From a virus, in the IMG/VR virus record IMGVR_UViG_3300049846_001717, positions 1 to 64,000 of that record: 64,000 nt of DNA, one strand, 5' to 3'. This document shows, piece by piece, positions 24,842-45,635 of the stretch. The number at the start of each line of letters is the position of its first letter. Position 1 is the first letter of the stretch. The notes below the pieces were generated by a model. The model was not told the DNA's origin and ran no database searches. It saw only the letters and a list, made by a program, of their open reading frames with translations. The position numbers and the translations under genes are program-made.

Positions 24842-25194
24842 TGGATCCGGGCGGAATCGAACCGCCGTCCGAAATACCGTACTAACAGTATCTTCTCCGT
24901 GCGCAGATGGGTGTCTTATTTCGGTGTACGATGTCACACTCATCGAAGCCATCGTACACCTAGTTCATAAGGCATTCATACGATATGAACGTCTCGTATG
25001 AATTTACTCATCTATCGGTTTCCCGTTCCGTCAATTCAGTACGATGAGAGAACTGAACGAGGATTCGCATACTCTTAAGCAGCGAGAGGAAGTGCTGTGT
25101 TTGCACTTGAATTTTTGACGACAGTTACGGATGTACGTCCTTTCCGGCACGCTTCATTCTGTGTTCGTGTTTCCGTCGAAACCAGGTCGGACCC
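24842..25194 (-). ncRNA. ssrA: tmRNA, tag (A)ANTALPLAA*
   Basis: 5' GGGTCCG..GGTTTCGAC, 3' GGCGGTTCGATTCCGCC-CGGATCC-A, G3:U pair, tag ending LAA-TAA; no encoded CCA. Confidence 0.93.
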
Positions 25195-25505
25195 TAACGT
25201 TTTACTGCAAAACTTCGATCTACCAATGCATCCAATGCGGCTACAATTGATGGTTTGGATCGATTGCTGGGATGCAACATCTTGCGTTCGTACCGCCACA
25301 CCAGTTCACAGATTTCATCCACCGTCATCCATTTACGAGAGTTGAGTGCACGGAGAATGTCACCATGTTGTTTTGCTACTTCTAGATAAATAGCGGGCTT
25401 GATGTTCGGGCGGATGGTGCCGCTCGCAGTATACACATTGAGTCTATACTGCGAGTCGGCCACTGACCTCTGTACATCGATTGTGATGTTGATTTCTGTT
25501 GTCAT
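25194..25505 (-). CDS. hypothetical protein
   Basis: ORF with GGAG SD. Confidence 0.55.
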   Translation of the reverse strand: MTTEINITIDVQRSVADSQYRLNVYTASGTIRPNIKPAIYLEVAKQHGDILRALNSRKWMTVDEICELVWRYERKMLHPSNRSKPSIVAALDALVDRSFAVKR

Positions 25506-25529
25506 ATCTGCTCCGACTATACATAGTCA

Positions 25530-26210
25530 TTACACGTACCGTACTTGGTAAATGTCAAGAATGTATGCATTTTCGGCGAACTGAATGTCCCGGTGCATAT
25601 GACCGCAGATCATCGCGGGTTTGTCCAAACGATTCCACACATCTTCCACGATGACACCGTTTGGATCCGTCCAATCAACCGGCACACCAAAATCCAACTT
25701 GGTCATGGGGTCAAAATACTTACGAATGACCCAATTCGGTGGAATGTGCGTCACCAACAAATCAACCTTGGGATTGCCCATCTTGTTCAAATTCTCGAAC
25801 AGTCGGTCCCGTTCTTCCGGTTGAATATCTTCCCGCGCGTCCCAGTGCCAGCCGTTCTTGAGTCGGTCGGCCTTATCAATAGACGAGGCGCCTCCGAGGA
25901 ACGCAACCACACGACCATCCAATTCCATCACCGTGCCACGAGGCACGTAGAACAAGTTGGGTGCGATTTCCGATACTTCTTGTAGATGATAGAAGTTTTG
26001 AAAATACTCATGATTGCCATCTACGAAATACACACGCTTCTTGAGCGGATTCTTTTGCAGAAAGACAAGATCTGATAATTTAAATCCCAAATCGCCTACT
26101 TGGATACAACTGAGATCGTTGTTTCCACCATTTACGTCGTTGACCGCGTCCACGATACCAGACAACACCCGTACATTACCGTGAATATCACCGATACCAA
26201 CCAATGCCAT
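25530..26210 (-). CDS. calcineurin-like metallophosphoesterase
   Basis: GDIHG, GDLG, DGNHE, THIPP, GHMH. Confidence 0.88.
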   Translation of the reverse strand: MALVGIGDIHGNVRVLSGIVDAVNDVNGGNNDLSCIQVGDLGFKLSDLVFLQKNPLKKRVYFVDGNHEYFQNFYHLQEVSEIAPNLFYVPRGTVMELDGRVVAFLGGASSIDKADRLKNGWHWDAREDIQPEERDRLFENLNKMGNPKVDLLVTHIPPNWVIRKYFDPMTKLDFGVPVDWTDPNGVIVEDVWNRLDKPAMICGHMHRDIQFAENAYILDIYQVRYV

Positions 26211-26220
26211 ATAACCTCCA

Positions 26221-26255
26221 AAAAATAAACCCATCGACGGGAGTGCCAATGGGTT
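26221..26255 (-). terminator. intrinsic terminator at end of tRNA region
   Basis: AACCCATTGGC-loop-GTCGATGGGTT + TATTTTT. Confidence 0.6.
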
Positions 26256-26263
26256 ACGAGTAA

Positions 26264-26350
26264 CGGAAAGTAAGAGATTCGAACTCTTGATCCCTTTAGA
26301 GGGGACACACCGTTTTCAAGACGGGCTCCTAGACCAACCGGACACTTTCC
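26264..26350 (-). tRNA. tRNA-Ser(TGA)
   Basis: Cloverleaf, long V arm, G73. Confidence 0.9.
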
Positions 26351-26431
26351 AAGTATATGTAACCTTCATTCTACTTTGTCATTCTACATGCAAGATTGCT
26401 CCATTTGGGTAATCACCGTAATCTACTCTAT

Positions 26432-27124
26432 TCAACCTTTGTTGGCAAGTAGCTTGTCCAACCGCCACCAGTACGTTTGATATTCGCCCTTAATTTGCAA
26501 CTTCTGCTTGAACAACGGATAGTCGGCGGCGTACTTATCGTTCTTTTCGCCTTCCGTTGCGTTGGCCAATCGATCACAGAGCTTTACGAATACAGCTTCA
26601 CGATCGGTATTAATTCGATCATAATAGCTGGTATTGGATTCCTTCGGTCGTTTGGTTACAAGGTCAACGATGTGTGCCACTTTTGGACCAAATTGTTTTT
26701 CCAATTGTTCCTTAGTGATGGATGTATCTTCCAACACATCATGCAACAATGCGGCCTGTCGTGACGCTGTTGTGCCGCCCTGTGCTAGTTGAAATACTTT
26801 GAGCAAATGATATTTGTATGGCTTATTTCCATACATCTGATCGCCATGGGCTCTGAGCGCAAAGTTGAGAGCCGACCCATAGTTTTGCTGTAGGTGACTG
26901 TCCGGAGCTTTCCCGGCTCGTCCTGATCTACCCGATGATCTATGTTGTGGATGATCGGGGTCCGTTTCTTTATCAAAGATATACTCTAACTTCCCATCCA
27001 CCGTTCGGGCCACGATCTCACCAGATGAATTGGCCCAATAACCCCACCCCTTACTGATCAAGCCACGCTTTTTAGCCTCGTCGCTGGCAGTAGATTCATT
27101 GAATATTTCAAGTAGTAGGATCAT
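26432..27124 (-). CDS. RelA/SpoT-type HD hydrolase (small alarmone hydrolase/Mesh1-like) with N-terminal extension
   Basis: AHGDQ..PYKYHL, LLHDVLEDT, VKLCDRLAN. Confidence 0.8.
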   Translation of the reverse strand: MILLLEIFNESTASDEAKKRGLISKGWGYWANSSGEIVARTVDGKLEYIFDKETDPDHPQHRSSGRSGRAGKAPDSHLQQNYGSALNFALRAHGDQMYGNKPYKYHLLKVFQLAQGGTTASRQAALLHDVLEDTSITKEQLEKQFGPKVAHIVDLVTKRPKESNTSYYDRINTDREAVFVKLCDRLANATEGEKNDKYAADYPLFKQKLQIKGEYQTYWWRLDKLLANKG

Positions 27125-27145
27125 GCGATTCTCTATTCGATTAAA

Positions 27146-27228
27146 CGGAATGCCAGGGAATCGAACCCTGTTGTCCTTGCGGACGTACCTCGGTTCCAGC
27201 GAGGCTCCTAGCCAATCGGTTACATTCC
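27146..27228 (-). tRNA. tRNA-Ser(GGA)
   Basis: Cloverleaf, long V arm. Confidence 0.9.
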
Positions 27229-27344
27229 AACGCGTTCACCTTTACCCATGACCATCGAGGTCATTTCACCCCATTCTATTCATGCACGCCCAACTAACGG
27301 TCCTAAGTTCGAATGGTATGGAACGCAAGGTATCTATAAATAGG

Positions 27345-27632
27345 TTACTTGGATGCTTTCGCCGCTCGCAAATCCATATCCTTCTGGATCATGGAGGCAA
27401 GGGCGAAAATACAGCCAACCGCAACGTCCATCAGTTCGTTGCCTGTTTCGATGGGGTCGTTCTGCTTGACAGCATCCATCAGTTCGAAATATTCTTCGGT
27501 GATGATGCCAAGTGATTCGTGGCTACTGATATACGCGCCGGTGCCATGCTTTTCGATCTTCTGGCCTAGTGCAACGGTCGCGGCTTCAATCGCCTTGAGT
27601 AGAGCGTCATCAGATACTTTCGGTCGTTCCAT
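27345..27632 (-). CDS. MazG-like NTP pyrophosphohydrolase
   Basis: EEYFEL...ELMDVA acidic motif; start MERPK. Confidence 0.55.
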   Translation of the reverse strand: MERPKVSDDALLKAIEAATVALGQKIEKHGTGAYISSHESLGIITEEYFELMDAVKQNDPIETGNELMDVAVGCIFALASMIQKDMDLRAAKASK

Positions 27633-28062
27633 GTGTAACCTCGGGTGTGGGCCAGACATACGGGAGGTCGTCTGGCATGTTTTTGAAATACTTGGAGTAG
27701 TGCTTGAAATCCTTTCGGAGCAGATTGGACTTGTGTGAACGATGTAGCGGCTTTCGGGGGCCGATCCACGGCGGGAAGCCAGTGAAATTCCGAGACACTC
27801 GAGCTTGGAAATACGGCAACAGGCTGTCGTTGTAGCCGCGGCGCCGCCATTCCAAACAGATATACATGCCGTACAGTGCCAACGCACCTTCGTAACCGGT
27901 CCACATCTTGACGGCAGGGTGGTTGCGCCAGCCCTTGGTCTGCGTCTCGTTCAGTAGGATTTGTAGGATCTGCTTGGCTTCAACACGTTGCTTGCCAAGC
28001 CGGCGGTAGTCGAGGACACGGGCCGTGCGCTCGAAATCGGGATATGGAAGGAATGTCTGCAT
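27610..28062 (-). CDS. pyrimidine-dimer DNA glycosylase/EndoV-like protein
   Basis: MQTFLPY..LDYRRLGKQRVEAKQI..HPAVKMW. Confidence 0.85.
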   Translation of the reverse strand: MQTFLPYPDFERTARVLDYRRLGKQRVEAKQILQILLNETQTKGWRNHPAVKMWTGYEGALALYGMYICLEWRRRGYNDSLLPYFQARVSRNFTGFPPWIGPRKPLHRSHKSNLLRKDFKHYSKYFKNMPDDLPYVWPTPEVTHGTTESI

Positions 28063-28068
28063 ACCCGT

Positions 28069-28097
28069 AAACTAACCTTTCGGCACGCGCCTGGCAA
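28069..28097 (-). promoter_or_regulatory. sigma70-type promoter
   Basis: TTGCCA-17-TAGTTT. Confidence 0.45.
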
Positions 28098-28136
28098 CCC
28101 TCCGGCACGCGCCAGGCTTGCGTCTGGCCGTCTAAA

Positions 28137-28210
28137 AACCCCCGGTGGGACTCGAACCCACATCTCCTGTTACGGTGGCCCGTTTAGGAAACGGGACCGA
28201 TACGGGGGGC
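28137..28210 (-). tRNA. non-canonical tRNA-Arg(CCT), no 5' D arm
   Basis: Acceptor, CCCGT-TTCCTAA-ACGGG, GTGGG-TTCGAGT-CCCAC; 7-nt linker replaces D arm. Confidence 0.7.
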
Positions 28211-28216
28211 AACTGT

Positions 28217-28429
28217 TTATCGAGGGTCGGTGTTGTTTTTGAACGCGTGGATTGCGATCTCGGCCTCCCACAACTTGTTTTCTACGTGTTCATCGTATGG
28301 ATATCCGTTTTGCTTCTTCGATTCATCCAACCAATATCGATACGAGTCGATTAGAACTCGTAGGATAGCTTTGGACTGAGGCGATTTAACCGACGCCTCT
28401 ATTGCGTCCAGTTCGTCATAACTGATCAT
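28217..28429 (-). CDS. hypothetical protein
   Basis: ORF track. Confidence 0.5.
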   Translation of the reverse strand: MISYDELDAIEASVKSPQSKAILRVLIDSYRYWLDESKKQNGYPYDEHVENKLWEAEIAIHAFKNNTDPR

Positions 28430-28659
28430 GTGATACGTGCCTCAGACTTGCCGTTGACGGTGATGATTTCGAGCGTGCCCTTGAACTTGATACTACCCTT
28501 CGTGTGAGGGTTATCCGGCGTTTCCTTCGTAGAAAACCCGACCTGTGAATCTACATGCCACACGTAATGAGTTTGGCCCTTGTGTTTGATGACCCACGGA
28601 GGAATGCCCTACGGATCAGTGATATGAGCCTTGTTGAAATGAAAGACGATGGTATCCAT
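28426..28659 (-). CDS. 77-codon phage protein with in-frame TAG (28609-28611)
   Basis: MDTIVFHFNKAHITDP*GIPPWVIKHKGQTHYVWHVDSQVGFSTKETPDNPHTKGSIKFKG...; fills gap exactly, ATGA overlap downstream. Confidence 0.65.
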
Positions 28660-28660
28660 G

Positions 28661-28840
28661 TTACTTAGTGTCCAATTTATTAGCCAATGTTTTTAACTTT
28701 CTAAGAGCAGATTTATACTTCGTCACAGCAAGTTTCCATTCAGGGGATGAATATGTTCCACGTCGATAGGCATTTCCCCATTCATCAAGAATATTTTCCA
28801 TTTCATTCATTATAACATCATTTTTGTTAAGATTTTTCAT
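28661..28840 (-). CDS. hypothetical protein
   Basis: ORF, AT-rich segment. Confidence 0.5.
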   Translation of the reverse strand: MKNLNKNDVIMNEMENILDEWGNAYRRGTYSSPEWKLAVTKYKSALRKLKTLANKLDTK

Positions 28841-29061
28841 TACCACTCCTCGTATGAGGTAACATCCAATGTTTCATTGGTTAATGCATCATGAATTTTA
28901 ACAATGGTTCCCAAGCCAGTAGGCGTAAAACTATAAGTAAATCTACCACCAGCGGCACCGGTGCGGCGCGATATCTTCTTTTCTTTAATTATCGTATCCA
29001 AAAATTCTACCCACTTTTCAATTTTTGGAGCGGCATCAAGTGGTATATTAAATAGAGTCAT
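28840..29061 (-). CDS. hypothetical protein
   Basis: GGRFTYSFTPTGLG..LDVTSYEEW. Confidence 0.6.
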   Translation of the reverse strand: MTLFNIPLDAAPKIEKWVEFLDTIIKEKKISRRTGAAGGRFTYSFTPTGLGTIVKIHDALTNETLDVTSYEEW

Positions 29062-29417
29062 TTCACAAGTGATAGATGTTTAAGTGCTTTTGCCTCTTCT
29101 CGGGTCAATGGACCGATACCAAGTGCAGTCATAATAGGGTTGCCATCAAAGTGAGGAGGCATAACATGGCCAGAATCAATGATGAGACTGTGTGGCCACC
29201 CATTGGCCTTCGCCAGTTTGACCAAGGCACGTATATCGGTGACAGAGCCTTCTAGAGTGACCTTCGTACCCAATCCACCCTTCTGATAGAGCCTGGCACG
29301 CCTGGGATTGAGTTGAACACACTCCAAATACGAATTAAGGAAAGCGTGACCCGCTTGAGCGGCCAGCTTTCCTGTCGGCATGTGTAAATCTTTACGAACT
29401 ATGGCATAGAGCTTCAT
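29058..29417 (-). CDS. peptidyl-tRNA hydrolase, Pth2 family
   Basis: VRKDLHM..GKLAAQAGHA, KVTL, IIDSG, TALGIGP. Confidence 0.88.
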   Translation of the reverse strand: MKLYAIVRKDLHMPTGKLAAQAGHAFLNSYLECVQLNPRRARLYQKGGLGTKVTLEGSVTDIRALVKLAKANGWPHSLIIDSGHVMPPHFDGNPIMTALGIGPLTREEAKALKHLSLVK

Positions 29418-29530
29418 GTTGACTTCATCTTCCTAGAACATATTATTTGGTCTTTTTGTTATGGGTTTTAGCGTGTTTTAACGCTTGTTTCATGGACTTC
29501 ATGAGTTCTTTAAATAGTTTCTTTTTCATA

Positions 29531-29602
29531 AGCTCGTGGCGAGGCTTGAACTCGCTTCTTTCGTTTTAGAGACGAAGGCACCGGCCGATATACCACACGA
29601 GC
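29531..29602 (-). tRNA. amber suppressor tRNA (CTA)
   Basis: Full cloverleaf, TTCGT-CTCTAAA-ACGAA, U73. Confidence 0.85.
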
Positions 29603-29618
29603 GTTTTCAAAATAATAG

Positions 29619-29691
29619 TGCTCACGGAAAGGATCGAACTTTCTGTCTCTACTATGTCAAAGTAGCGTGTTAGCCGGTACACCACGCGAGC
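29619..29691 (-). tRNA. tRNA-Val(GAC)
   Basis: Cloverleaf. Confidence 0.88.
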
Positions 29692-29771
29692 GATCGAGAG
29701 TTCACGAAATTTAACGTTCTTGGTACTCACAACTTTCTTTACGAACGTATAATCTGTGCACAGATTATAAG

Positions 29772-29858
29772 AGGATCGGACAGGATTCGAACCTGTGATT
29801 AAGTCTTTCGACTATATGGTTTTGCAGACCATTGCGTTGGCCACTTCGCTACCGATCC
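29772..29858 (-). tRNA. tRNA-Cys(GCA) with long variable arm
   Basis: U73; V arm AGTC-GAAA-GACT. Confidence 0.85.
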
Positions 29859-29863
29859 AAAAG

Positions 29864-29956
29864 AGCGATTTCCTGAGTCGAACAGGTCTTCGTACCTGGA
29901 GGGGTACGCGTGCTGATGGATCATCTTGCGACAACCCGCCGTTACACTAAAACCGC
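29864..29956 (-). tRNA. atypical tRNA-Gly-like (8-nt anticodon loop, hairpin in D loop)
   Basis: GCG/CGC acceptor, U73; loop CCCTCCAG. Confidence 0.6.
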
Positions 29957-29960
29957 AAAT

Positions 29961-30010
29961 TGGCGCAAAGGGTGGAATTGTACATCCACTACAGAATTGA
30001 ATCCCCTTGC
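29961..30010 (-). ncRNA. tRNA minihelix-like RNA with encoded CCA
   Basis: GCAAGGG/CCTTTGC + GTGGA/TCCAC + G-CCA. Confidence 0.55.
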
Positions 30011-30017
30011 ATATTAC

Positions 30018-30069
30018 TGGCGGCAGGCGAAGGATCTACCCCTTCATACATAGTCAATGCTAGCCCGCC
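30018..30069 (-). ncRNA. tRNA minihelix-like RNA with encoded CCA
   Basis: GGCGGGC/GCCTGCC + GAAGG-7nt-CCTTC + G-CCA. Confidence 0.6.
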
Positions 30070-30096
30070 AAACTGATTTTCACGAGGTTGTTACAA

Positions 30097-30170
30097 TAGC
30101 GGAGGTTGGATTTGAACCAACGTCCTTCCGGTTATGAGCCGGACGCGCTGCCGGGCTGCGCCACTCCGCG
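30097..30170 (-). tRNA. initiator tRNA-fMet(CAT)
   Basis: C1:U72 mismatch, CGCGG 5' end. Confidence 0.88.
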
Positions 30171-30219
30171 TCAATGTTACTTTAACTGTCGAACTTTGAT
30201 CTCATACGTCCCTGTGGGG

Positions 30220-30555
30220 GTTGGATGCCAATAGCCAGGATTCTGTATAATGACAATCATTTGACTCAGTCCTCTTGCGAGGACCGCCCCACGTTTATAG
30301 TGAGGTGCTCTCAACCCGATACCTTTGGTCAGACGGACCCGTATCTGCTCGAGATTGCAGCGCCTATCCTGTCGCCCGTTTCATCCACCGCGTTATCGTG
30401 GCTCGTTTCTGTTGCCGTGACTCCATTTCGGAAAATACGAATTTCTCCATAAGATTCCTTATAGGGGAGCAGCTTCCACTCTAGGCTGTCTTGTGCTGTC
30501 CTGAACTTCCTCAACGTACAATCTAGTGTACGCCGCGATTGTCTAGGCATCCAAC
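30220..30555 (-). ncRNA. rnpB: RNase P RNA
   Basis: P1 GTTGGATGCC/GGCATCCAAC, P2 GACAATC/GATTGTC, CR-I GAGGAAGTTCAGGA pairs with CR-V ACAGAATCCTGGCT (P4), CAACAGAAA, TGAAAC. Confidence 0.88.
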
Positions 30556-30648
30556 TGTTTTACGATGTCCCGCAATTCCTTCCATTCGTCCTTCGTGAAT
30601 TCCGAACCATCCTTGTACATCGGACCGACAAACGTGTCACCCGAATGT

Positions 30649-30677
30649 AGTCTAACATGTTCGATGAACTTTGTCAA
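30649..30677 (-). promoter_or_regulatory. sigma70-type promoter upstream of RNase P RNA
   Basis: TTGACA-17-TAGACT. Confidence 0.65.
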
Positions 30678-30834
30678 GAGCGATTTGTAGTTCATTGTAA
30701 TCCTTACTTCTTGGGAACTTATACTGCATGGAGAGGTCAGGTGCTAGCCATGTCTGGCAGAAGGTGTCTTAGTAGTCTTGCAGGCATCCCTGTAGTGTCT
30801 ATAAGCATAATCTTCTTTTGCATACCTGACCAAG

Positions 30835-30907
30835 TCGGAAAGACAGGACTTGAACCTGCAACCCCCTGGTCCCAAACCAGGTGATCTGCCAATTGATCTA
30901 CTTTCCG
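30835..30907 (-). tRNA. tRNA-Pro(TGG)
   Basis: Cloverleaf. Confidence 0.92.
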
Positions 30908-30916
30908 AGTAGAGGG

Positions 30917-31791
30917 GAACGGGCTGAGAATACACCCGTTCTAGTCATCCTTTTGAACCATTATCCATCCCACATCCCTGTGAGACGTTCGATTCGTTTC
31001 CACGGTGACTCTCACCGTCGATGACCACAGCGACCTTTTTTAAAGTGTGGCGTTTCACTTGTCGTCTAGCACTTCTCGACACTTCTCCTACCGTCTGCCT
31101 TGCGAGCAGTACACAGTCGCTAAACCGTTACGTGCGGGTCTATATCGAAGACTCTCTGGCTTGGGGCCATCGAATCCGCCGTCTTCCTTGCGGGACGGCA
31201 TTACGCTGTTTATCATGCTTAGACCGAGGAAGTCTTTCCGTTTTTGGATTCGTATGATGGATTTGAACCACCATTAAATTGTTAATAGCAATGTGCCTTA
31301 CCGTTAGGCAAATACGACTTTGAACGAAGTGCTTCCTCAGTTGTTCCAATGACTTTTGATCATCAGAATGCAACACTCCGCGGCTACCGTTCCCCCTGAA
31401 CAGGGTACTACGTCATACGTCACGAACTCGGGCTGGCCTCTTAATAGCGGACAGCTCAGTTCATTAGTATTCCTGTGAAGCTCTTGGTTTCAAGGCCTCG
31501 AACCTCACAAGTATCTGTTACCTATCTGTTCTCGCGTGTGGGTTGAAATGGAGCCCGGCACCACCCGTCAGACTTCATGAACTTGCTTTCCTTCCCGAAG
31601 GAAGGGGCGTCAGCCCACGTTTTTCCCATTTCCACGCTTCGAACCTATCACCGAACCTTCGCCCGATGCTACTGGCTTCGAACCAGTAAAGGCCAGACTT
31701 GTTTGGATGAACCGTCTTGCGACGGCCCGGGTTACAAAGATAGCCCGGTTTATAGGCCTTACGACCTACTGTTCTTACGGAGTCCAAACAC
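30917..31791 (-). ncRNA. GOLLD-like large structured RNA (~875 nt)
   Basis: No credible ORF, many GNRA/UUCG hairpins, GTGTTGCATTC..TCAAAAG..GAACAAC, 3' hairpin GAACGGG-TGTATTCTCAG-CCCGTTC, embedded tRNA; family recalled from memory. Confidence 0.7.
31245..31318 (-). tRNA. degenerate tRNA-Asn(ATT) embedded in GOLLD-like RNA
   Basis: TCGTAT/ATACGA, D arm, ATTG-CTATTAA-CAAT, TTCAAAT loop, CCA. Confidence 0.6.
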
Positions 31792-31933
31792 CCCGTTGTT
31801 TCGATTATCAAACAACACTACAATATGGCGGTGTAAAATCAAACTCGATTGTTACAACCCAATCAAGAATTGCCCTGATCGTAAATCCCGTAGTTGCGTT
31901 AGAGTTTCACGACCCTATTGATTTCACACCATA

Positions 31934-32005: not shown

Positions 32006-32023
32006 ATCGTTTCCTACTCATGT

Positions 32024-32289: not shown

Positions 32290-32292
32290 AAG

Positions 32293-38553: not shown

Positions 38554-39240
38554 CTATGCCGCATCCTCGTGAAGATCAAAATCGGACTCCAACATCGCTG
38601 CGCCGTACTTATTCTGCATTTTCGGATTTCGGGAGTTGTCCTTGTTGTGCTGACTCCATCCCATCGACTTGCTGACCTTCCCGTACAGACCACCCTTGAA
38701 AATCTTGTTGTGCAACTCCTGGTGCCGGCTATCGTAGGTCGTGTCCGGAATCCAATGATGGGTGATGATGTTCGGCGTGATCGCCAACACGAACCAATAG
38801 TCATGTTTGACGAAGTAGCCTTTCTTGTCGATCTTTTTCTTGTACGGAAATCCGACGTAGTCGGACCACTCACGATATTGAAAATACGACTTCAACTTCT
38901 CGCTCAGCGATTCGTATTTCTCGACTGTGATCCATCCCAACTTCTGGTTCCGAGGTTCCAACTGGCCGGTACGCCAGTTCATCCACAGAAAATCCTCACG
39001 ACGCGAGAACTGATCGCTGTTGACCAAATCCAACGCCTGCCGAATGTCTCGAGCATCCGTGCGATTGCGGATGTCTTCCCGCAACACGAATCGCCGTGTC
39101 CATCCGTTCTGATAATGCTCCACCGGTTCCCAGTGTCCTGCGCTTTCGTCACGCGCCCATCGGTTTCGGCGCGTCTTTTCGTACTCCGCCCACAACTTCC
39201 GCAACTTCTTTTCTTCTTCGTCCTTATGTGTACGTTTCAT
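38554..39240 (-). CDS. hypothetical protein
   Basis: GAGG SD before MKRTHK. Confidence 0.7.
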   Translation of the reverse strand: MKRTHKDEEEKKLRKLWAEYEKTRRNRWARDESAGHWEPVEHYQNGWTRRFVLREDIRNRTDARDIRQALDLVNSDQFSRREDFLWMNWRTGQLEPRNQKLGWITVEKYESLSEKLKSYFQYREWSDYVGFPYKKKIDKKGYFVKHDYWFVLAITPNIITHHWIPDTTYDSRHQELHNKIFKGGLYGKVSKSMGWSQHNKDNSRNPKMQNKYGAAMLESDFDLHEDAA

Positions 39241-39258
39241 AGAACCTCGTAAAGAAAG

Positions 39259-39332
39259 TGCCAACTCTCGGAATCGAACCGAGCCATGCGGCTCTTCAGA
39301 CCGCCGTTCCGCACCACGTAAACTTAGTTGGC
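39259..39332 (-). tRNA. tRNA-Phe(GAA)
   Basis: Cloverleaf. Confidence 0.82.
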
Positions 39333-39548
39333 TTGGAGCGGGACCGGCTTTTCATTCCGTCAAGGGCTCCCGCTGGACCTGTATATGTGAATGATGGGCG
39401 GTCTTTTGACGGGCCGTTCACAAGAGGCGCCCTGAATCTCGTTACTGAGCCGATTTCACCCATCAAAATGGTGTTCGTATGGTAGTCGGGACCACGCATA
39501 GTGGGCATCGGTCATCCTCCCACAGCTAATCACTACCATACGAACAAG

Positions 39549-39625
39549 TCCGCCCAGTAGGAGTTGAACCTACGTGCAACCAACTAGCCTTTCTACCGTG
39601 TATCAGACGGAGGGCATATGGGCGG
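39549..39625 (-). tRNA. non-canonical tRNA-Ile(GAT), no 5' D arm
   Basis: CCGCCCA/TGGGCGG, CCGT-CTGATAC-ACGG, GTAGG-TTCAACT-CCTAC, A73. Confidence 0.72.
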
Positions 39626-39653
39626 TTATCTGAGTTACATGCGGATATACTTC

Positions 39654-39682
39654 AATCTACTACGATCCATCTTGTGTGGCAA
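39654..39682 (-). promoter_or_regulatory. sigma70-type promoter
   Basis: TTGCCA-17-TAGATT. Confidence 0.55.
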
Positions 39683-39754
39683 GCTCCCACCCGGTTCTGA
39701 CCCGGGCTCTCTGCTTTACCAAAGCAGAATGTCAACCACGATCACTATAGGAGC
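39682..39754 (-). tRNA. tRNA-Thr(GGT)
   Basis: Cloverleaf, atypical T loop. Confidence 0.8.
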
Positions 39755-39773
39755 GTTCGTGAAACCATTGTAA

Positions 39774-39845
39774 AGCTCCATATGGGAGTTGAACCCATTT
39801 ATCCCGCTTACGAGGCGGGTACATCACCCTTTATGCTTATGGAGC
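39774..39845 (-). tRNA. tRNA-Thr(CGT)
   Basis: Cloverleaf. Confidence 0.87.
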
Positions 39846-39915
39846 ATGTGGCTGTGAGATTTTGCACGTTCCCACATTTACTCTCCTCGACTGCTTCTTC
39901 GGAGTACCATCGAAC

Positions 39916-40056
39916 CGCGGGCGTGTTCTGCCATTGAACTATATGTGTACGAGAAGCTGGGCACGGACTGGCACTAAGTATTCCATATTATTCCACACCG
40001 CGTGGCACCGTCTTCAAACTACTCATACGAGGAATTGAACCTCGATCTCACCCTCA
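39916..40056 (-). ncRNA. circularly permuted tRNA-like RNA (T arm before D arm)
   Basis: GGGTG-AGAT-CGAGGTTCAATTCCTCG-TATGAGT...ACACATA-TA-GTTCAATGGCAGAAC-A-CGCCC. Confidence 0.65.
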
Positions 40057-40129
40057 CGCTAACGGTCAGATTCGAACTGACGGCATCCTCATTACAAGTG
40101 AGGTGCATTGGCCTCTATGCTACGTTAGC
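40057..40129 (-). tRNA. tRNA-Thr(TGT)
   Basis: Cloverleaf. Confidence 0.9.
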
Positions 40130-40132
40130 AAG

Positions 40133-40208
40133 TCGGCCCGACTGGAGTTGAACCAGTGTGCACCGTCTAACCTTTCAACCGCTTATCAGGCGGAGGGTAT
40201 ACGGGCCG
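40133..40208 (-). tRNA. non-canonical tRNA-Ile(GAT), no 5' D arm
   Basis: CGGCCCG/CGGGCCG, CCGC-CTGATAA-GCGG, ACTGG-TTCAACT-CCAGT, A73. Confidence 0.72.
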
Positions 40209-40355
40209 GTAGCCGCCTTTTACTGTGGGCCTTCCCACACCGGCTCATGGCCGGAGGTACTCTACGGTTGCCTAATTGGTTGAATGTGGCCAGGTCACTG
40301 ATACGTAGGCACAGCCCTTTCGGGCATCAATACGCACTTCCTCACTGCACATTCA

Positions 40356-40429
40356 TGGACACCACGGGAATCGAACCCGTCACATCGTCATTGCGAATGA
40401 CAATCGCCACCCTTGGTACATTGGCGCCC
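40356..40429 (-). tRNA. tRNA-Ala(CGC)
   Basis: G3:U70. Confidence 0.82.
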
Positions 40430-40499
40430 GAGCCCGCAACCGGCGATGTCCCGGCGAGTTGACCTCCCTTCAACTCTTTCATGCGGCGGATTATTTCAA

Positions 40500-40621
40500 C
40501 GGCGATGGCAGGATTCAAACCTGCATTCGTGTAACTCAAAGCGCTTTGAGAAAGACCATACGGCCACCATGCATAGCAACCGAACGTTCGAACCACGTCT
40601 TATCAGTTAGATGACACCGCC
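40500..40621 (-). ncRNA. tRNA-like RNA with expanded anticodon domain
   Basis: GGCGGTG/CATCGCC, D arm, GCAGG-TTTGAAT-CCTGC, ~65-nt insert. Confidence 0.55.
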
Positions 40622-40624
40622 AAA

Positions 40625-40695
40625 TGGACCGAGTGGGAATCGAACCCACGAGTGCGCCATGCCATGGCGCCAGTTTCCCGTTAGCTTACCGGCCC
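40625..40695 (-). tRNA. tRNA-Ala(GGC)
   Basis: G3:U70. Confidence 0.87.
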
Positions 40696-40715
40696 GAACA
40701 ATGCTTCTAATTTCA

Positions 40716-40786
40716 TGGACCCGGGGAGAATCGAACTCCCATTATCTCGGTGCAAGCGAGATGTCCTCCCATTAAACGACGGGCCC
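40716..40786 (-). tRNA. tRNA-Ala(TGC)
   Basis: G3:U70. Confidence 0.88.
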
Positions 40787-40893
40787 AAATATCTAAACAA
40801 ACTGGACTGCCTTGTGGAACACCAGTCCGCCCTCCATGTTATTTTTCTCGACTTTCATCGGCCACCTATTGATGGGGCAATCCATTTAGACAA

Positions 40894-40968
40894 CGCACCG
40901 TAGAGGAATCGAACCTCTCTATCACTGTTTAACAGACAGTCGTAATCTACCAGACATACCAACGGTGC
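40894..40968 (-). tRNA. tRNA-Asn(GTT)
   Basis: Cloverleaf. Confidence 0.8.
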
Positions 40969-40995
40969 ATAATTCATTACATTTTCTACGGTTAA

Positions 40996-41076
40996 ATCAC
41001 CGGGTGGGAATTGAACCCACGTAGGCTTGCGCCACTGATTAACAGTCAGTTGCCTGAACCATTAGGCTACCGGTGA
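40996..41076 (-). tRNA. tRNA-Asn(GTT) with long variable arm
   Basis: V arm GGC-GCAA-GCC. Confidence 0.85.
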
Positions 41077-41165
41077 GTAACTACCTCTTGACCCCATTAA
41101 ACGATTCGGTTCTAAACCGAGGGAACTCTTGCGAGAAGAAGTACAGATCGTGTGTCGTGTGTAAA

Positions 41166-41375
41166 TGGTGGACCCTGGGATTTCTCAATCCCACAAGTAA
41201 CGTAACCTCGGGACACGACTCCCATTACGGTGCTTGACATGAAACATTCTTGGAGCCCTTAATTCATGTGTCGTGCGACAGTGGAGGCCCGTGTTCAACC
41301 TACTTCAAGGCACGACCCTTGATACAGTGATTGACTCGGTCTTGTAAAATCTTCTTAGGACTCTACACACAGGCC
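41166..41375 (-). ncRNA. unknown ~210-nt RNA with tRNA-like 3' end
   Basis: Ends GGGAT-TGAGAA-ATCCC-AGGGTCC-ACCA. Confidence 0.4.
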
Positions 41376-41378
41376 ATA

Positions 41379-41451
41379 TAACCGCACTCGGATTCGAACC
41401 GAGATTCAGAGGGTCAAAGCCTCTTGTCCTAAACCGTTGGACGATGCGGCA
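41379..41451 (-). tRNA. tRNA-Gln(TTG)
   Basis: Cloverleaf. Confidence 0.87.
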
Positions 41452-41452
41452 G

Positions 41453-41525
41453 TTGCTCTTCTAGGGATCGAACCTAGAGTTTCCTGGGTCAGAGCCAGGC
41501 GTGTTGCCAGTTACACTAAAGAGCA
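41453..41525 (-). tRNA. tRNA-Gln(CTG)
   Basis: Cloverleaf. Confidence 0.9.
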
Positions 41526-41848
41526 AAATGTTCTTTTCTATGACAGTTGGAACATAGTACAATACATTTTTCAACTTCTTGTAAAATTCTTGTCTTACCC
41601 CACGATCCCGCAGAAACCATTGATCCGATGTTACCGTGTTTAATGTTTGGATCTGTATGATGAAAATCTAGACATGCCGGATGTGATTCGGGGCATCGTT
41701 CACATTTCAATGTAGACTTGAATTGTTTCCACCATTCTTGCATTTCCTTACGACGGGTCTGTTTTCTTTGCAAGTACGAATCTTTATTGTTCAGATAATG
41801 TTGTTTGTTATACTGATCTTTCTGTTTTTTGGACCACTTATTTGACAT
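41516..41848 (-). CDS. HNH endonuclease-like protein
   Basis: CERC..CLDFHH..KCIVLCSNCHR; stop lies inside tRNA-Gln. Confidence 0.8.
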   Translation of the reverse strand: MSNKWSKKQKDQYNKQHYLNNKDSYLQRKQTRRKEMQEWWKQFKSTLKCERCPESHPACLDFHHTDPNIKHGNIGSMVSAGSWGKTRILQEVEKCIVLCSNCHRKEHFAL

Positions 41849-41915
41849 AATACTCTCCAATTTTGAGAGGTTGTTATGTATAAGTAGTCTGACCCAAACA
41901 GTTTCAGTCAGATAA

Positions 41916-42101
41916 TTACAACTCACTACATGGGATACAGAATGGTGCTGCGACCTGACGTTTCTTTTCTTCATCGAATCCAACGTCAATGAATTCGATT
42001 TTGTCTTCCGGGATGAAATCCGAACAGTTGACGCAAATCCACGAAATCTGTGATTTACCGTTTTCGATGACCTGCTTCACATTGCGTTTACGAACCAACA
42101 T
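41916..42101 (-). CDS. small Zn-finger-like protein
   Basis: CVNC...CIPC. Confidence 0.55.
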   Translation of the reverse strand: MLVRKRNVKQVIENGKSQISWICVNCSDFIPEDKIEFIDVGFDEEKKRQVAAPFCIPCSEL

Positions 42102-42125
42102 ACGACCTTTCTACGTTAAAGTTGA

Positions 42126-42201
42126 TACCAGTGATGGGTGCCGACCCCATTTCAATTCCGCTTATGAGGCGGACGCCGATGCCGACCGGCTTCCCACTGG
42201 C
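42126..42201 (-). tRNA. tRNA-Met(CAT), atypical T loop
   Basis: TCCGC-CTCATAA-GCGGA. Confidence 0.75.
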
Positions 42202-42238
42202 GTAATGCTATTCCACCCAGGGTATTGCAGAGTAACAG

Positions 42239-42318
42239 TGGTGTGGGAGGGATTCGAACCCACAGGCCGAAGCGCCGGTTTTACAGACCGGTGTTAATTC
42301 CAACATAACTTCCACACC
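42239..42318 (-). tRNA. tRNA-Tyr(GTA)
   Basis: Cloverleaf, V arm. Confidence 0.87.
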
Positions 42319-42519
42319 ATAGATATGTGAGTGCAGTCTCGTTCACCAGTTCCCTGCACTTTCGTTTCACACGTTACGTCACTACAAAGAGTGATGGATT
42401 TTGTTTTCTCACGTTCTCAGAGGAGTATCAGTCCTCTGAGTGCTAAGACATATGACACAACCTACTCTCTAGAATTCCTTTGTGCCACTTCCGGTTCCAT
42501 CAACCGGTCGTCTTGTGTG

Positions 42520-42747
42520 TTGAATTACGTGGTGATGATCCCTCGTTACGAATCGCACGTAACATTGCAATTTAGATGAGTCGCCACCGTCAATCAACTA
42601 GTATGTACGCTGAAAGTGGCCAGCATTTATTTGGTCTGCACATTTAAGACTCTCGCCCAAACTACTTCCCGGCCTTTGCCGCCTTACGGGTATCTCCGGT
42701 TTTCGCCTCATCACCTAGTCATTGCCCAGGTATACTACGTAATTCAA
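42520..42747 (-). ncRNA. unknown structured RNA (~228 nt)
   Basis: Closing helix TTGAATTACGT/ACGTAATTCAA, inner GGTGATGA/TCATCACC. Confidence 0.5.
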
Positions 42748-42748
42748 G

Positions 42749-42821
42749 GGTGATATACCGGTATCGATCCGGTACTCGCGGAGTCACAGTCCACTGTGCA
42801 GGCCACTACACTAATATCACC
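42749..42821 (-). tRNA. tRNA-His(GTG)
   Basis: G-1:C73. Confidence 0.88.
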
Positions 42822-42932
42822 ATAGGTGCAACCCCTAGGCCATCAGTTATTCACCGGCTGGGATGACTCCGCGCAGTGCCGGTCCAGATGCTCTCGTTGT
42901 CAGGGTTGCTGGAGAGCCCACGCTATGCTACA

Positions 42933-43006
42933 TGCTTCGGCTGAGATTCGAACTCAGAAGACTTCCGATTAAGAGTCGGATGCTTTACCTGATAAGCTTA
43001 CGAAGC
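42933..43006 (-). tRNA. tRNA-Lys(CTT)
   Basis: Cloverleaf. Confidence 0.87.
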
Positions 43007-43045
43007 GTAGGAAGGTTGTTTACGGTCTAACCTACAAAGACCACA

Positions 43046-43119
43046 TGCCTCGGGTGGGACTCGAACCCACAACTTACCGCTTAAAAGGCGGCTACTCTGC
43101 GCTATTGAGTTACCAAGGC
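43046..43119 (-). tRNA. tRNA-Lys(TTT)
   Basis: Cloverleaf. Confidence 0.9.
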
Positions 43120-43123
43120 GTTA

Positions 43124-43195
43124 TGCTTCCGGCCGATCCTGACACGGCAACGTGCTGTTTAAAAGACAGCTGTGATTCCTTTTCACCACGGAAGC
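43124..43195 (-). tRNA. tRNA-Lys(TTT), atypical T loop
   Basis: GCTGT-CTTTTAA-ACAGC. Confidence 0.72.
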
Positions 43196-43401
43196 GCTGG
43201 TGCCTCAATGTCGCGGTCACGTTGAGGCGCCGTGAGTGTGCAATATTGCATTTCTGGGACCGCTCACACACGGTCGTGCAATACTGTCCGCTGCTTCTTC
43301 GATTAACCAGTTTTGATGCCCGAAATAAATCCGACGTTCGTTATAGGAACGTTCGGGAAGCAGACTATCGACCTGAACAGAAGTCGGCTCGTACTGCCTA
43401 A

Positions 43402-43473
43402 TGCCCACGGAAAGATTCGAACTTTCTCGGAGAGTTTCGTAGACTCTAATGCTATCCGTTACATCACGAGGGC
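43402..43473 (-). tRNA. tRNA-Arg(ACG)
   Basis: Cloverleaf. Confidence 0.88.
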
Positions 43474-43509
43474 GTTGACGGTGTTTAGTGTGGTTCGCCG
43501 TCACCACTC

Positions 43510-43538
43510 AATATACAACATCTGTCTTCAGTTGTCAA
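43510..43538 (-). promoter_or_regulatory. sigma70-type promoter inside tRNA array
   Basis: TTGACA-17-TATATT. Confidence 0.65.
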
Positions 43539-43555
43539 GTAGCAAACTTCAAAAG

Positions 43556-43641
43556 CGGAAACGATAGGAATTGAACCTACAAGTGCTTATTAGGCACCGA
43601 CTGTTTTCGAGACAGCTTATCGCACCAATGATCGCGTTTCC
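43556..43641 (-). tRNA. tRNA-Ser(CGA)
   Basis: Cloverleaf, long V arm. Confidence 0.87.
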
Positions 43642-43755
43642 AGATTGCAGCAACAAGCACCAACTTTGTATGCATCCGGTGTGCATACCCTTTAATTCGG
43701 CTCCCGTCAGGGGTTGGTTAAAGCTCGACGCCCTCCCCATTCTTGTTACTACAAA

Positions 43756-43842
43756 CGGAAAGTAAGGGATTCGAACCCTTTCCCCGAATTAACGGGGCTG
43801 GTTTAGCAAACCAGTGTAGCGCACCGACTCTACCGACTTTCC
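43756..43842 (-). tRNA. tRNA-Ser(GCT)
   Basis: Cloverleaf, long V arm. Confidence 0.9.
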
Positions 43843-43844
43843 TT

Positions 43845-43884
43845 CGCCCGAAGAGGGACTTTCACCCTCTCTTTCCGTTCGGGC
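43845..43884 (-). ncRNA. tRNA minihelix-like RNA
   Basis: GCCCGAA/TTCGGGC + GAGGG-TGAAAGT-CCCTC + G73. Confidence 0.45.
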
Positions 43885-43894
43885 AGGACGGAAG

Positions 43895-44059
43895 TTACTT
43901 TGTAGCTACCCGTTCTGCGTGCTGACACGCTTTACGATATGCCTCTACGGCTCGTTTGATTCGTTTTACATCTTCCGGCTTTGCAAACTCGTCGATCATC
44001 GTATAGATTTTCTTACGCGCCACAACTGCCTTATGTACTGCCTGCTCTCCGGCGGTCAT
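43895..44059 (-). CDS. hypothetical protein (54 aa)
   Basis: Hand translation MTAGEQAVHKAVVARKKIY...; GAGG SD. Confidence 0.55.
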   Translation of the reverse strand: MTAGEQAVHKAVVARKKIYTMIDEFAKPEDVKRIKRAVEAYRKACQHAERVATK

Positions 44060-44158
44060 ACAACCTCATTAAGTTGGAGTCCAGAACGAGTTGCGGTCAT
44101 GAGCCTTCTCGTATCTCCGCTCGATGGAGCGGTATTCTTCATTTAAACTATCCGGACA

Positions 44159-44230
44159 TACCCTCGGAGGGAATTGAACCCCCTATACTTGGTTCGAAGC
44201 CAAGCGTGATATCCGGTCCACTGCGAGGGC
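44159..44230 (-). tRNA. tRNA-Arg(TCG)
   Basis: Cloverleaf. Confidence 0.87.
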
Positions 44231-44268
44231 GTAGTTTGTTACACTTTGATCAAAACGTTCACCTACAA

Positions 44269-44343
44269 CATGTCCGACAGGATTCGAACCTGCAACAACT
44301 CGTTTTGGAGGCGAGCACCATTAGCCAGTTTGGTTCCGGACAT
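44269..44343 (-). tRNA. tRNA-Trp(CCA)
   Basis: Cloverleaf, G73. Confidence 0.87.
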
Positions 44344-44579
44344 ATACTACGATGGGAGGCGGGCTGGGCACGGGCCGTCAATCGATGCGTCCATCGACGG
44401 TGAGCATTCGCGAAAATACTCACTTCCCGATATTAGTTTGTAACGTACAACACCGTCCCGACACTCCACTAACTTTGAGACGCGTCCACACTCGGACCAC
44501 AAGGCATAGCTGGGGTCGCATCGCCTTGACGGGGAGTAGGCACCCCGTTCTCGTCTCCACTGCGGATCTTACGATCCAG

Positions 44580-44655
44580 AGCCGCTAACCGGATTCGAAC
44601 CGGTACTTCTACATTGGCAATGTAGCGTGCTCAATCCGTTGAACACTATAACGAC
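44580..44655 (-). tRNA. tRNA-Gly(GCC)
   Basis: Cloverleaf, U73. Confidence 0.82.
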
Positions 44656-44662
44656 TTACTTA

Positions 44663-44734
44663 CGGTGTATGCGGGTATCGATCCCGCTTCCTTCCCGTGA
44701 CAGGGGAAGATCCTAGCCAGTAGACGAATACACC
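44663..44734 (-). tRNA. tRNA-Asp(GTC)
   Basis: Cloverleaf, G73. Confidence 0.88.
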
Positions 44735-44742
44735 AACGTATC

Positions 44743-44793
44743 AAAAAACAAGAAACCCCATTCACGGTTTTCAAGGCCGGTGAAGGGGGTTTC
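44743..44793 (-). terminator. intrinsic terminator/attenuator hairpin just before tRNA-Asp
   Basis: GAAACCCC-C-TTCAC..GTGAA-T-GGGGTTTC + TTGTTTTTT. Confidence 0.8.
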
Positions 44794-44817
44794 GGGAAAA
44801 CTTCGGGCGGTTACTGC

Positions 44818-44940
44818 TTAGTTTGCGCCGCCACCCATCCCATCCCCTTCGATTGTATCTTCAATACTGCGCGTACCGAAGGCTTGCTTCGATGCGGGCA
44901 TTGTATTGACTTTATACTGCCAAGTGGTATGGGTAAACAT
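44818..44940 (-). CDS. putative attenuation leader peptide (40 aa)
   Basis: MFTHTTWQYKVNTMPASKQAFGTRSIEDTIEGDGMGGGAN*; 3' codons complementary to terminator 5' arm. Confidence 0.7.
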   Translation of the reverse strand: MFTHTTWQYKVNTMPASKQAFGTRSIEDTIEGDGMGGGAN

Positions 44941-45021
44941 AGGGAAATCCTAGGAGTTGGGTGATTCTGGACTATACATAGTGAGCACGTTCAGAAAACG
45001 GTCACTTTCTTCATATGGTGA

Positions 45022-45050
45022 AGTCTAACACATCGGCCGCCGTTTGGCAA
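45022..45050 (-). promoter_or_regulatory. sigma70-type promoter for leader/tRNA array
   Basis: TTGCCA-17-TAGACT. Confidence 0.65.
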
Positions 45051-45067
45051 GCGTCAGTTTTAACTAG

Positions 45068-45140
45068 TTGGCCCGGAGGGATTTGAACCCCCGCACTTTC
45101 CATTATGAGTGGACCGCTCTGACCGCTGAGCTACGGGCCA
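45068..45140 (-). tRNA. tRNA(CAT), probably Ile2 (lysidine type)
   Basis: Cloverleaf, Ile-like acceptor. Confidence 0.82.
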
Positions 45141-45143
45141 ATA

Positions 45144-45506
45144 TCACCCGATTGGAATATTCGGGGATTTGGATTTGAGTACGTCAATGACACGATCAAA
45201 GCCCCATCGACCGAACATGATGCCACAACATAGGAACAACAACCAGAACATCGGCCAGGTCCAGACCTCATCCATATTACGAACAGACCGAACGATGCCG
45301 GTAAACAACACCGTACATGAAATGCCAAATGCCATCATTTTCGTCGCACTGGGCCGCCCATCAGTTCCGAGCAGGTCCGCGAGGGCCAAGATTTGACGCC
45401 ATCGGGCGTAGATCCATCGAAACACCGGACCGCCACGACTATATGGTCGTTGTACGGAAGGTACTTCAATGGTCTGTTGTCCAACTGGTCGATAGGTCAC
45501 GTTCAA
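45144..45506 (-). CDS. two-TM membrane protein (holin-like?)
   Basis: Two hydrophobic helices. Confidence 0.5.
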   Translation of the reverse strand: MNVTYRPVGQQTIEVPSVQRPYSRGGPVFRWIYARWRQILALADLLGTDGRPSATKMMAFGISCTVLFTGIVRSVRNMDEVWTWPMFWLLFLCCGIMFGRWGFDRVIDVLKSKSPNIPIG

Positions 45507-45544
45507 CTCCCGTGTGGGGAATGTAACCGACTATGACCGTTTTA

Positions 45545-45635
45545 TACTCCCGGTGGGACTCGAACCCACATATTGCGTATCTCAGACGCTGACCGTATCA
45601 TAAGTACGGGGGCTTAACCATTAACCGACAGGAGC
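45545..45635 (-). tRNA. tRNA-Ile(TAT) with long variable arm
   Basis: CCGTA-CTTATGA-TACGG, V arm GCGT..ACGC. Confidence 0.82.

Follow-up and report, generated by a model that had tools for sequence, protein, structure and literature searches.

The DNA considered here, called the window, comprises the first 64 kb of the 98,055-base linear IMG/VR record IMGVR_UViG_3300049846_001717, whose completeness is about 45% (CheckV). It holds some 50 tRNA and tRNA-like genes together with a tmRNA, an RNase P RNA, a GOLLD RNA and genes for a peptidyl-tRNA hydrolase, a release factor, an alarmone-hydrolase-like protein, chaperonins and a CCA-adding enzyme (Table 1), a set which probably represents a translation-support island of a large uncultured myovirus. 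The assignment to the myoviruses follows from a T4 gp6-like baseplate wedge protein encoded at 13977-15911, the closest cultured relatives by this protein being Microcystis phage Mel-JY01 (43% identity) and the Flavobacterium 'immuto' phages (39%). Neither the island nor its RNase P RNA gave a megablast or blastn match among 50,697 phage records. Nearly all genes within 1-54 kb are carried by the minus strand. The G+C content of the island is steady (0.45-0.52), so that there is no sign of a chimeric assembly. The full genome of such a phage would be large, about 200 kb or more.

Table 1. Features of the island and related genes in the window, with the evidence for each assignment.
Feature	Position	Strand	Evidence and remarks
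CCA-adding tRNA nucleotidyltransferase with HD domain	1767..3365	-	PF01743, PF12627, PF01966; TIGR02692 268 bits
HNH endonuclease gene	23355-23882	-	beside or in the array
tmRNA	24842..25194	-	tag ANTALPLAA; G3-U70 pair kept; CCA not encoded; ARAGORN and Rfam
Calcineurin-like metallophosphoesterase	25530..26249	-	PF00149 4e-9; phrog_1649 5e-30
tRNA array	26263..45635	-	about 50 tRNA/tRNA-like genes, CCA encoded in none; ARAGORN, Rfam, 3' ends read
Promoter motif TTGMCA-N17-TAKAYT, eight copies	26420..47388	-	sigma-70-like
HD_4 protein, RelA/SpoT hydrolase-domain-like	26432..27124	-	PF13328 1.3e-11; TIGR00691 positions 1-118
Pyrimidine-dimer glycosylase	27610-28062		
Pth2 (peptidyl-tRNA hydrolase)	29058..29417	-	PF01981 1.6e-17, 64.2 bits against a cut-off of 23, positions 1-114 of 115
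Amber-suppressor-type tRNA, anticodon CUA	29531..29602	-	ARAGORN; Rfam tRNA 48.7 bits
RNase P RNA, divergent, class A type, 338 nt	30217..30554	-	RF00010; downstream of promoter 30677-30649
GOLLD RNA	30921..31383	-	RF02032 172.3 bits against a gathering score of 150; tRNA-like element 31245-31318 embedded
GroES (Cpn10), within the array	32374..32661	-	PF00166 77.9 bits
HNH endonuclease gene	33225-33452	-	beside or in the array
BCS1-like AAA ATPase	34608-35990		
RF1-type release factor without domain 1	36528..37200	-	223 aa after +1 shift
prfB-type +1 frameshift cassette GAGGT AGT CTT TGA C	37059..37073	-	sequence read
HNH endonuclease gene	41516-41989	-	beside or in the array
Leader region: promoter, leader ORF, candidate antiterminator, terminator	44741..45050	-	sequence, folds, promoter motif
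GroEL	45708..47327	-	PF00118 7.6e-75; TIGR02348 825 bits

ARAGORN called 46 tRNA genes, all between 26263 and 45635, and four extra matches came from Rfam (44580-44655, 37223-37299, 34041-34148 and 39549-39625), which brings the island to about 50 to 51 tRNA or tRNA-like genes. A first-pass annotation, made by a model from the sequence alone, had counted about 55; this inventory lowers the number and upholds, as judged from the anticodons, the statement that all 20 amino acids are represented. The count takes in an amber suppressor, the pseudo-tRNA embedded in the GOLLD RNA and several non-canonical forms. By simple wobble 57 of the 61 sense codons are readable, corresponding to 95% of the codon usage in 80 long open reading frames (ORFs), where the reading of CTY would come from the GAG gene at 37223-37299 and that of CCY from a UGG anticodon. 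The earlier observation that CCA is encoded neither in the tRNA genes nor in the tmRNA also holds, since every 3' end was read and none has CCA after the discriminator base; the seeming CCA at a few tRNA ends is made up of the acceptor strand and the discriminator.

Several members of the array are unusual. For one 96-nt gene ARAGORN called a four-base anticodon. Two D-armless tRNA-like genes (39549-39625 and about 40131-40210, minus strand) combine a GAU (Ile) anticodon arm with normal acceptor and T arms, and they are the only candidates of the island for ATC and ATT, the Ile codons most used by the phage. Three genes of 74-77 nt with Leu anticodons are devoid of a long variable arm (37721-37794, CAG; 33739-33813, CAA; 37223-37299, GAG; all on the minus strand); in the GAG gene position 33 is C, and the release-factor gene, with CUU as its shift codon, starts directly downstream of it. 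At 34041-34148 (minus strand) a 108-nt tRNA-like element, which has a long extra arm and an unusual anticodon loop (ACAGCTG), scored 33.8 bits with Rfam and received no ARAGORN call. The tRNA-CUA is present in a genome in which TAG terminates 22-23 long ORFs, and in the unrelated phages G001 and L009 a tRNA-CUA is likewise found near the same kinds of gene.

The release-factor gene starts at 37200 (MKYLVEIRPGEGG...), and its joined frame ends at 36528. The frameshift gate which had been proposed in this gene is exactly as claimed, being a complete prfB-type cassette with a Shine-Dalgarno-like element, a 3-nt spacer and CUU UGA C, and the identical layout occurs in 8 other distinct phage genes. 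The 223-residue product scores 185 bits with the NCBIfam prfA profile (TIGR00019) against 109 bits with prfB and, with solved structures (PDB), 134 bits for RF1 against 68 bits for RF2. Its TIGR00019 match of 173.7 bits stays below the cut-off of 423 and is limited to profile positions 115-341, which means that domain 1 is absent. The segments QRIPPTE, GRVHTS and GPGGQH align with RF1 structures, and both the PxT decoding motif and the GGQ catalytic motif are present.

Conservation of the gate was followed through the relatives of this factor, which are encoded by 385 IMG/VR contigs. Ninety loci were read (80 from IMG/VR, several metagenomic ones and the window), giving 71 distinct, classifiable N-terminal parts, and a stop interrupts the gene at one of two positions in 66 of them: by an in-frame TGA in 55, by an in-frame TGA with two stops in one, by a +1 frameshift at CTT TGA in nine, most of which have a GGAGG-like element in front, and by an in-frame TAG in one; the remaining five are uninterrupted. 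The first position is the codon of a conserved RF1 Trp (codon 30/31, after the EIR motif), and the second, to which the window belongs, lies about 10 codons further on; in-frame and frameshift forms are both found at both. The frameshift gate of the window is therefore genuine and belongs to a type of stop-codon gate that is widely conserved, and because of this conservation at least one component of the island would be made conditionally. The base following the in-frame stops is A in 46 cases, G in 17, C in 8 and U in none. In E. coli, U after the stop provides the strongest termination context.

A genetic code with TGA as Trp was considered for two genomes, that of the window and that of G001, a complete 345-kb phage with an in-frame gate, and it was rejected for both, since a long in-frame ORF is no commoner after TGA than after TAA; in these two genomes TGA is a genuine stop. 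Some database homologues have Trp at the gate position, as seen at the protein level (TGG or code-4 TGA). Most database entries of the family are 163-197 residues long and span only the part after the stop, an annotation artefact to be expected of such a gate. In one homologue (L063, IMGVR_UViG_3300045256_000058) the interrupting codon is an in-frame TAG instead of TGA, which would make the gate truly autoregulatory for an RF1-type protein.

In the case of bacterial prfB, more ribosomes pass the frameshift site when RF2 is scarce or slow, and by analogy the phage gate should behave in the same way. The two systems share the Shine-Dalgarno-like element, the 3-nt spacer and CUU UGA C, and in both the full product is obtained only if termination at UGA fails. 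Nevertheless, the gene of the window is of RF1 type and has no domain 1, its site is located in domain 2 and not at codon 25-26, and most of the phage homologues use plain in-frame UGA read-through, which makes a feedback by the own product doubtful. A possible logic would be that the added termination at UAA and UAG relieves RF2. Among viruses, a class-I release factor gene that needs stop-codon recoding by frameshift and read-through is known from Mimivirus and Megavirus (Jeudy et al. 2012, PMC3521657); that factor is of the eukaryotic/archaeal type, belongs to an amoeba virus and has both events in one gene, whereas the phage factor is of the bacterial RF1 type with one event, of either kind. 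No comparable report of a gated phage release factor was found in a literature search, which missed most subscription journals.

The second distinctive component is the RNase P RNA. Under relaxed thresholds it matches RF00010 over the full model (positions 1-367) with 72.8 bits and an E-value of 1e-20, a score below the Rfam gathering score of 100, so that its earlier identification is borne out by the extent of the match and falls short of the family threshold. With E. coli M1 RNA and RF00010 it shares P1-P4, CR-I, CR-V with the bulged U, CR-II/III-like motifs and the GGU motif of L15; in the region of the specificity domain, ACAGAAA and GGAUGAA are present. It differs from them in being viral, in the P13/P14 segment, cut from 44 to 3 positions, and in having no RnpA gene nearby. 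All P4 pairs are kept, three of them by two-sided changes with respect to the bacterial consensus, and so is the bulged U. P4 was compared by motif; MAFFT did not align the window ribozyme with the L004 copy. Over seven phage copies, compensatory changes are seen at pairs 74/353, 73/354, 71/356, 68/358 and 67/359 and the bulged U is invariant, the pattern of covariation to be expected if a working ribozyme core is under selection.

The six further phage copies come from three metagenomic contigs and three long viral records (G037, G008 and G039), and RNase P RNA recurs in other phage contigs beside tRNAs and the release factor. The three contigs carry miniature RNAs (L004:7791-8070, 280 nt; L044:1707-1949, 243 nt; L045:2460-2701, 242 nt), all of which end 19-33 nt before the start of a gated RF1-type gene, in what looks like a conserved ribozyme-release-factor unit; a tRNA-Arg(CCU) usually lies ahead of them. 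In the L004 alignment the specificity domain is almost wholly missing, and its loss in L044 and L045 is suggested by their length. In G037 (340 kb, 99% complete) the RNA at C1:95514-95861 (locus L136) reaches 255 bits, well above the threshold, and the release-factor gene of that phage follows about 1.8 kb downstream. RNase P RNA genes are usually taken to be confined to cells. The Rfam model gave no match in five published phage genomes tested, three of them huge, and the same literature search returned no published report of a phage-encoded RNase P RNA; RNase P is not mentioned in the huge-phage paper (PMC7162821) nor in two jumbo-phage surveys, including PMC7824862.

The tmRNA reaches 120 bits with RF00023 against a gathering score of 47 and has a tag reading frame, which gives the tag named in the first-pass annotation. 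It is of the standard one-piece type; the tmRNA of G001 (C1:306555-306937) is of the permuted, two-piece type, with the tag ANDANGALALAA. The GOLLD RNA, which had escaped the first-pass annotation, scores above its threshold and has tRNA genes on both flanks. The local order is GOLLD, tRNA-Pro, promoter, RNase P RNA, tRNA-Met, so that one tRNA and one promoter separate GOLLD from the RNase P RNA downstream. In mycobacteria, GOLLD occurs in horizontally transferred tRNA arrays with HNH genes (PMC6582537); both settings have HNH genes and a large tRNA cluster that includes a GOLLD, itself containing a pseudo-tRNA, whereas the window is a fragment of a lytic-type myovirus and not a bacterial chromosome, and its GOLLD adjoins an RNase P RNA.

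Regarding the protein genes, family matches support the presence inside the island of Pth2, whose match is full-length and above the cut-off, of the release factor and of the SpoT-like HD_4 protein, all three as previously stated, the last being a candidate small alarmone hydrolase by its domain similarity. The chaperonin pair and the CCA-adding enzyme, which had been counted as parts of the island, do exist, with a different placement: GroES lies within the tRNA array, GroEL just beyond it and the CCA-adding enzyme close to the start of the record. The ORF beside GroEL (47378-47743) was considered as GroES and rejected, as it has no family match and the real Cpn10 is the one in the array.

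Transcription of the island appears to start from many points. The sigma-70-like motif is found eight times against 0.06 expected, always on the minus strand, with first hexamers starting at 47388, 45675, 45050, 43538, 39682, 34630, 30677 and 26448, that is, ahead of GroEL, tRNA-Ile, the leader, tRNA-Arg, a D-armless tRNA, tRNA-Leu, the RNase P RNA and tRNA-Ser, respectively. The island is thus a set of separate transcription units, of which an attenuator could govern only one. In that unit the promoter (45050-45022) is followed by a 40-codon ORF (44940-44818) with an AGGA ribosome-binding site and by an intrinsic terminator (44793-44752) with a U run, which ends just ahead of tRNA-Asp. An antiterminator can form by pairing of GAAGGGG (44850-44844, codons 31-33 of the ORF) with CCCCUUC (44788-44782, in the 5' arm of the terminator), and in silico the lowest-energy fold before the 3' arm of the terminator is a three-tiered antiterminator stem of -30.3 kcal/mol, the terminator having -20.7. 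The leader ORF, the terminator and a mutually exclusive antiterminator are therefore all found in silico, and the attenuator proposed for this place is structurally plausible. According to these folds, a ribosome at the end of the ORF would melt the antiterminator, and a ribosome stalled earlier, or none, would leave it intact, a behaviour compatible with read-through under poor translation.

The leader ORF shares with the trp and his attenuators the short ORF, the terminator and an alternative pairing dependent on ribosome position; it differs from them in that it has no run of one regulatory codon, would control tRNA genes and is a single instance without known conservation. In fact, its codons 2-30 comprise 27 different codons, whereas 29-codon windows of the phage's own genes have a mean of 20.8 (sd 2.2) and reach 27 in 0.5% of cases, a diversity that is suggestive for one instance picked by eye. 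No close relatives in which the leader could be compared were found, the searches with the AAA ATPase and HD_4 proteins giving one distant locus each.

The components recur in other large phages. The complete genome of G001 carries 52 tRNAs, including a CUA suppressor, together with a permuted tmRNA, a CCA enzyme, GroES, Pth2 and a gated factor; it matches only 8 of the 166 ORFs of the phage studied here, and the release factors are 61-65% identical. Of 39 viral records that encode the factor, 8 have a GOLLD and 7 a tmRNA above threshold, and 3 have an RNase P RNA match; a 332-kb phage contig has HD_4, Pth2 and tRNA-CUA inside 20 kb. The parts thus move between large phages that are unrelated in other respects, as a loose module whose pieces are freely combined. 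Suites of tRNAs, tmRNA, CCA enzyme, release factors and peptidyl-tRNA hydrolase have been described in huge phages (Al-Shayeb et al. 2020, PMC7162821; the Sinorhizobium jumbo phage AP-J-162, PMC11242549; PMC7824862). With its dozens of tRNAs, tmRNA, CCA enzyme, peptidyl-tRNA hydrolase and release factor in one record, the island as a whole is a new example of this published kind. No RNase P RNA, GOLLD or release-factor recoding gate is described in PMC7162821 or for AP-J-162, whereas the window has all of them; what goes beyond the published suites is that a phage encodes an RNase P RNA, that this RNA is often found next to the factor gene, and that the stop-codon gate is conserved.

In the explanation we favour, and consider likely, the phage would use eight or more sigma-70-like promoters to produce CCA-less tRNAs that together decode nearly all codons, and it would add capacity at the steps strained by the flood of precursors and by heavy late translation. 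The phage RNase P RNA, presumably with host RnpA, would trim the 5' ends, the phage CCA enzyme would add and repair the CCA, Pth2 would recycle dropped peptidyl-tRNA, and the tmRNA would rescue stalled ribosomes with SmpB, which the host could supply. The RF1-type factor without domain 1 would terminate at UAA and UAG, the HD_4 hydrolase would remove (p)ppGpp, and GroES and GroEL would assist protein folding. As regards regulation, the release factor would be completed only by ribosomes that fail to terminate at the internal UGA because RF2 is scarce or slow, and one tRNA transcription unit would be read through when its leader is poorly translated. What the sequences show directly is the parts and their order, the promoter motif, the gate with its conservation and the P4 covariation of the ribozyme; we infer all activities, the need for host partners, the timing and the logic of the two regulatory elements.

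Several points weigh against this interpretation. The set still needs, as far as the record shows, SmpB, RnpA, aminoacyl-tRNA synthetases, 3'-processing nucleases and elongation factors from the host: no match was obtained for SmpB (PF01668) or RnpA (PF00825) in the 98-kb record, nor were synthetases, 3' nucleases or elongation factors seen in it, although in a record of about 45% completeness such absences are weak evidence. The description of the island as near self-contained was, in this respect, overstated. Furthermore, the RNase P RNA is sub-threshold, and the D-armless Ile-GAU, short 'Leu' and C33 tRNAs may not decode. The gate senses UGA, the RF2 codon, and the protein looks RF1-type (UAA/UAG), so that simple autoregulation is doubtful and the benefit of the coupling is a conjecture. 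The leader is a single case, without the conservation or the codon run of an attenuator, and the leader/terminator arrangement occurs at only one of the eight promoters; since these are spread over the island, there is no single switch for it and most tRNAs are not behind the attenuator. The conditional backup system that had been suggested thus finds partial support, strong for the gate and plausible for the leader, the rest being apparently under ordinary promoters.

Other explanations of the island have to be considered. Phage tRNAs can offset host defences that cleave tRNA, and the island could be mainly a counter-defence, a spare tRNA set with repair and recycling functions against cutting or depletion of host tRNAs or against destruction of host RNA by the phage itself. 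A near-complete set instead of a few rare-codon tRNAs would suit this purpose, as would Pth2, the tmRNA and the HD domain of the CCA enzyme, which fits 3'-end repair; the promoters, however, look like ordinary host-type ones without a stress cue, and neither RNA ligase nor polynucleotide kinase appeared in Pfam scans of about 50 window ORFs or in tblastn of the ORFs of the record against one distant relative, no dedicated search having been made. This explanation is possible but somewhat unlikely. A further explanation would be that the region is a mobile, mix-and-match assembly of cassettes spread by homing endonucleases, with many parts decaying or little used. It could account for the three HNH genes, for the aberrant tRNA-like genes and for a release factor shared at 61-65% identity with a phage that has so little else in common, and tRNA arrays with GOLLD and HNH genes have indeed moved into mycobacteria (PMC6582537). 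Nevertheless, P4 covariation and the conservation of the gate are evidence of purifying selection on these parts at least, and the genes all share one strand, where they follow copies of a recurring promoter motif. This explanation is unlikely.

The tRNAs could also serve mainly to match the codon usage of the phage to a host whose own tRNA pool differs, in which case the remaining genes would be unrelated passengers. The frequent codons of the phage are covered by its tRNAs, and tRNA number climbs with genome size in huge phages (PMC7162821); but nearly every codon is covered, rare as well as frequent, and the genes for maturation, rescue and termination are interleaved with the tRNAs and recur with them in phages otherwise sharing almost nothing, so that this alternative is quite improbable. 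A switch of stop-codon reassignment, formed by the amber suppressor tRNA and the RF1-type factor, is very improbable: recoded gut phages do carry suppressor tRNAs and release factors (bioRxiv 10.1101/2021.08.26.457843), and a tRNA-CUA is present here, but TAG, TGA and TAA all terminate long ORFs, no split-gene signature is seen, and an RF1-type factor would oppose amber suppression.

Beyond the translation-support island itself, a bolder proposal, doubtful at this stage, is that large phages operate a feedback circuit on translational capacity formed by the UGA gate, the leader and the RNase P RNA. In such a circuit the internal UGA would gauge RF2-dependent termination and the codon-diverse leader would gauge decoding; the outputs would raise the termination factor and the tRNA supply, and the RNase P RNA, often encoded directly upstream of the gated gene, would process the added precursors. 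On this view the gate would have had two or more origins, at two positions and with both forms at each of them.

Phage translation suites are usually known as lists of genes, and in this context the RNase P RNA and the gate offer direct access to the way in which a suite is put to use. The related phage RNAs without a specificity domain would be natural minimal ribozymes. The gate also causes the routine mis-annotation of the release-factor family, and its conservation, which probably extends to hundreds of phage genes for this factor, would imply that phages monitor the termination capacity of their hosts.

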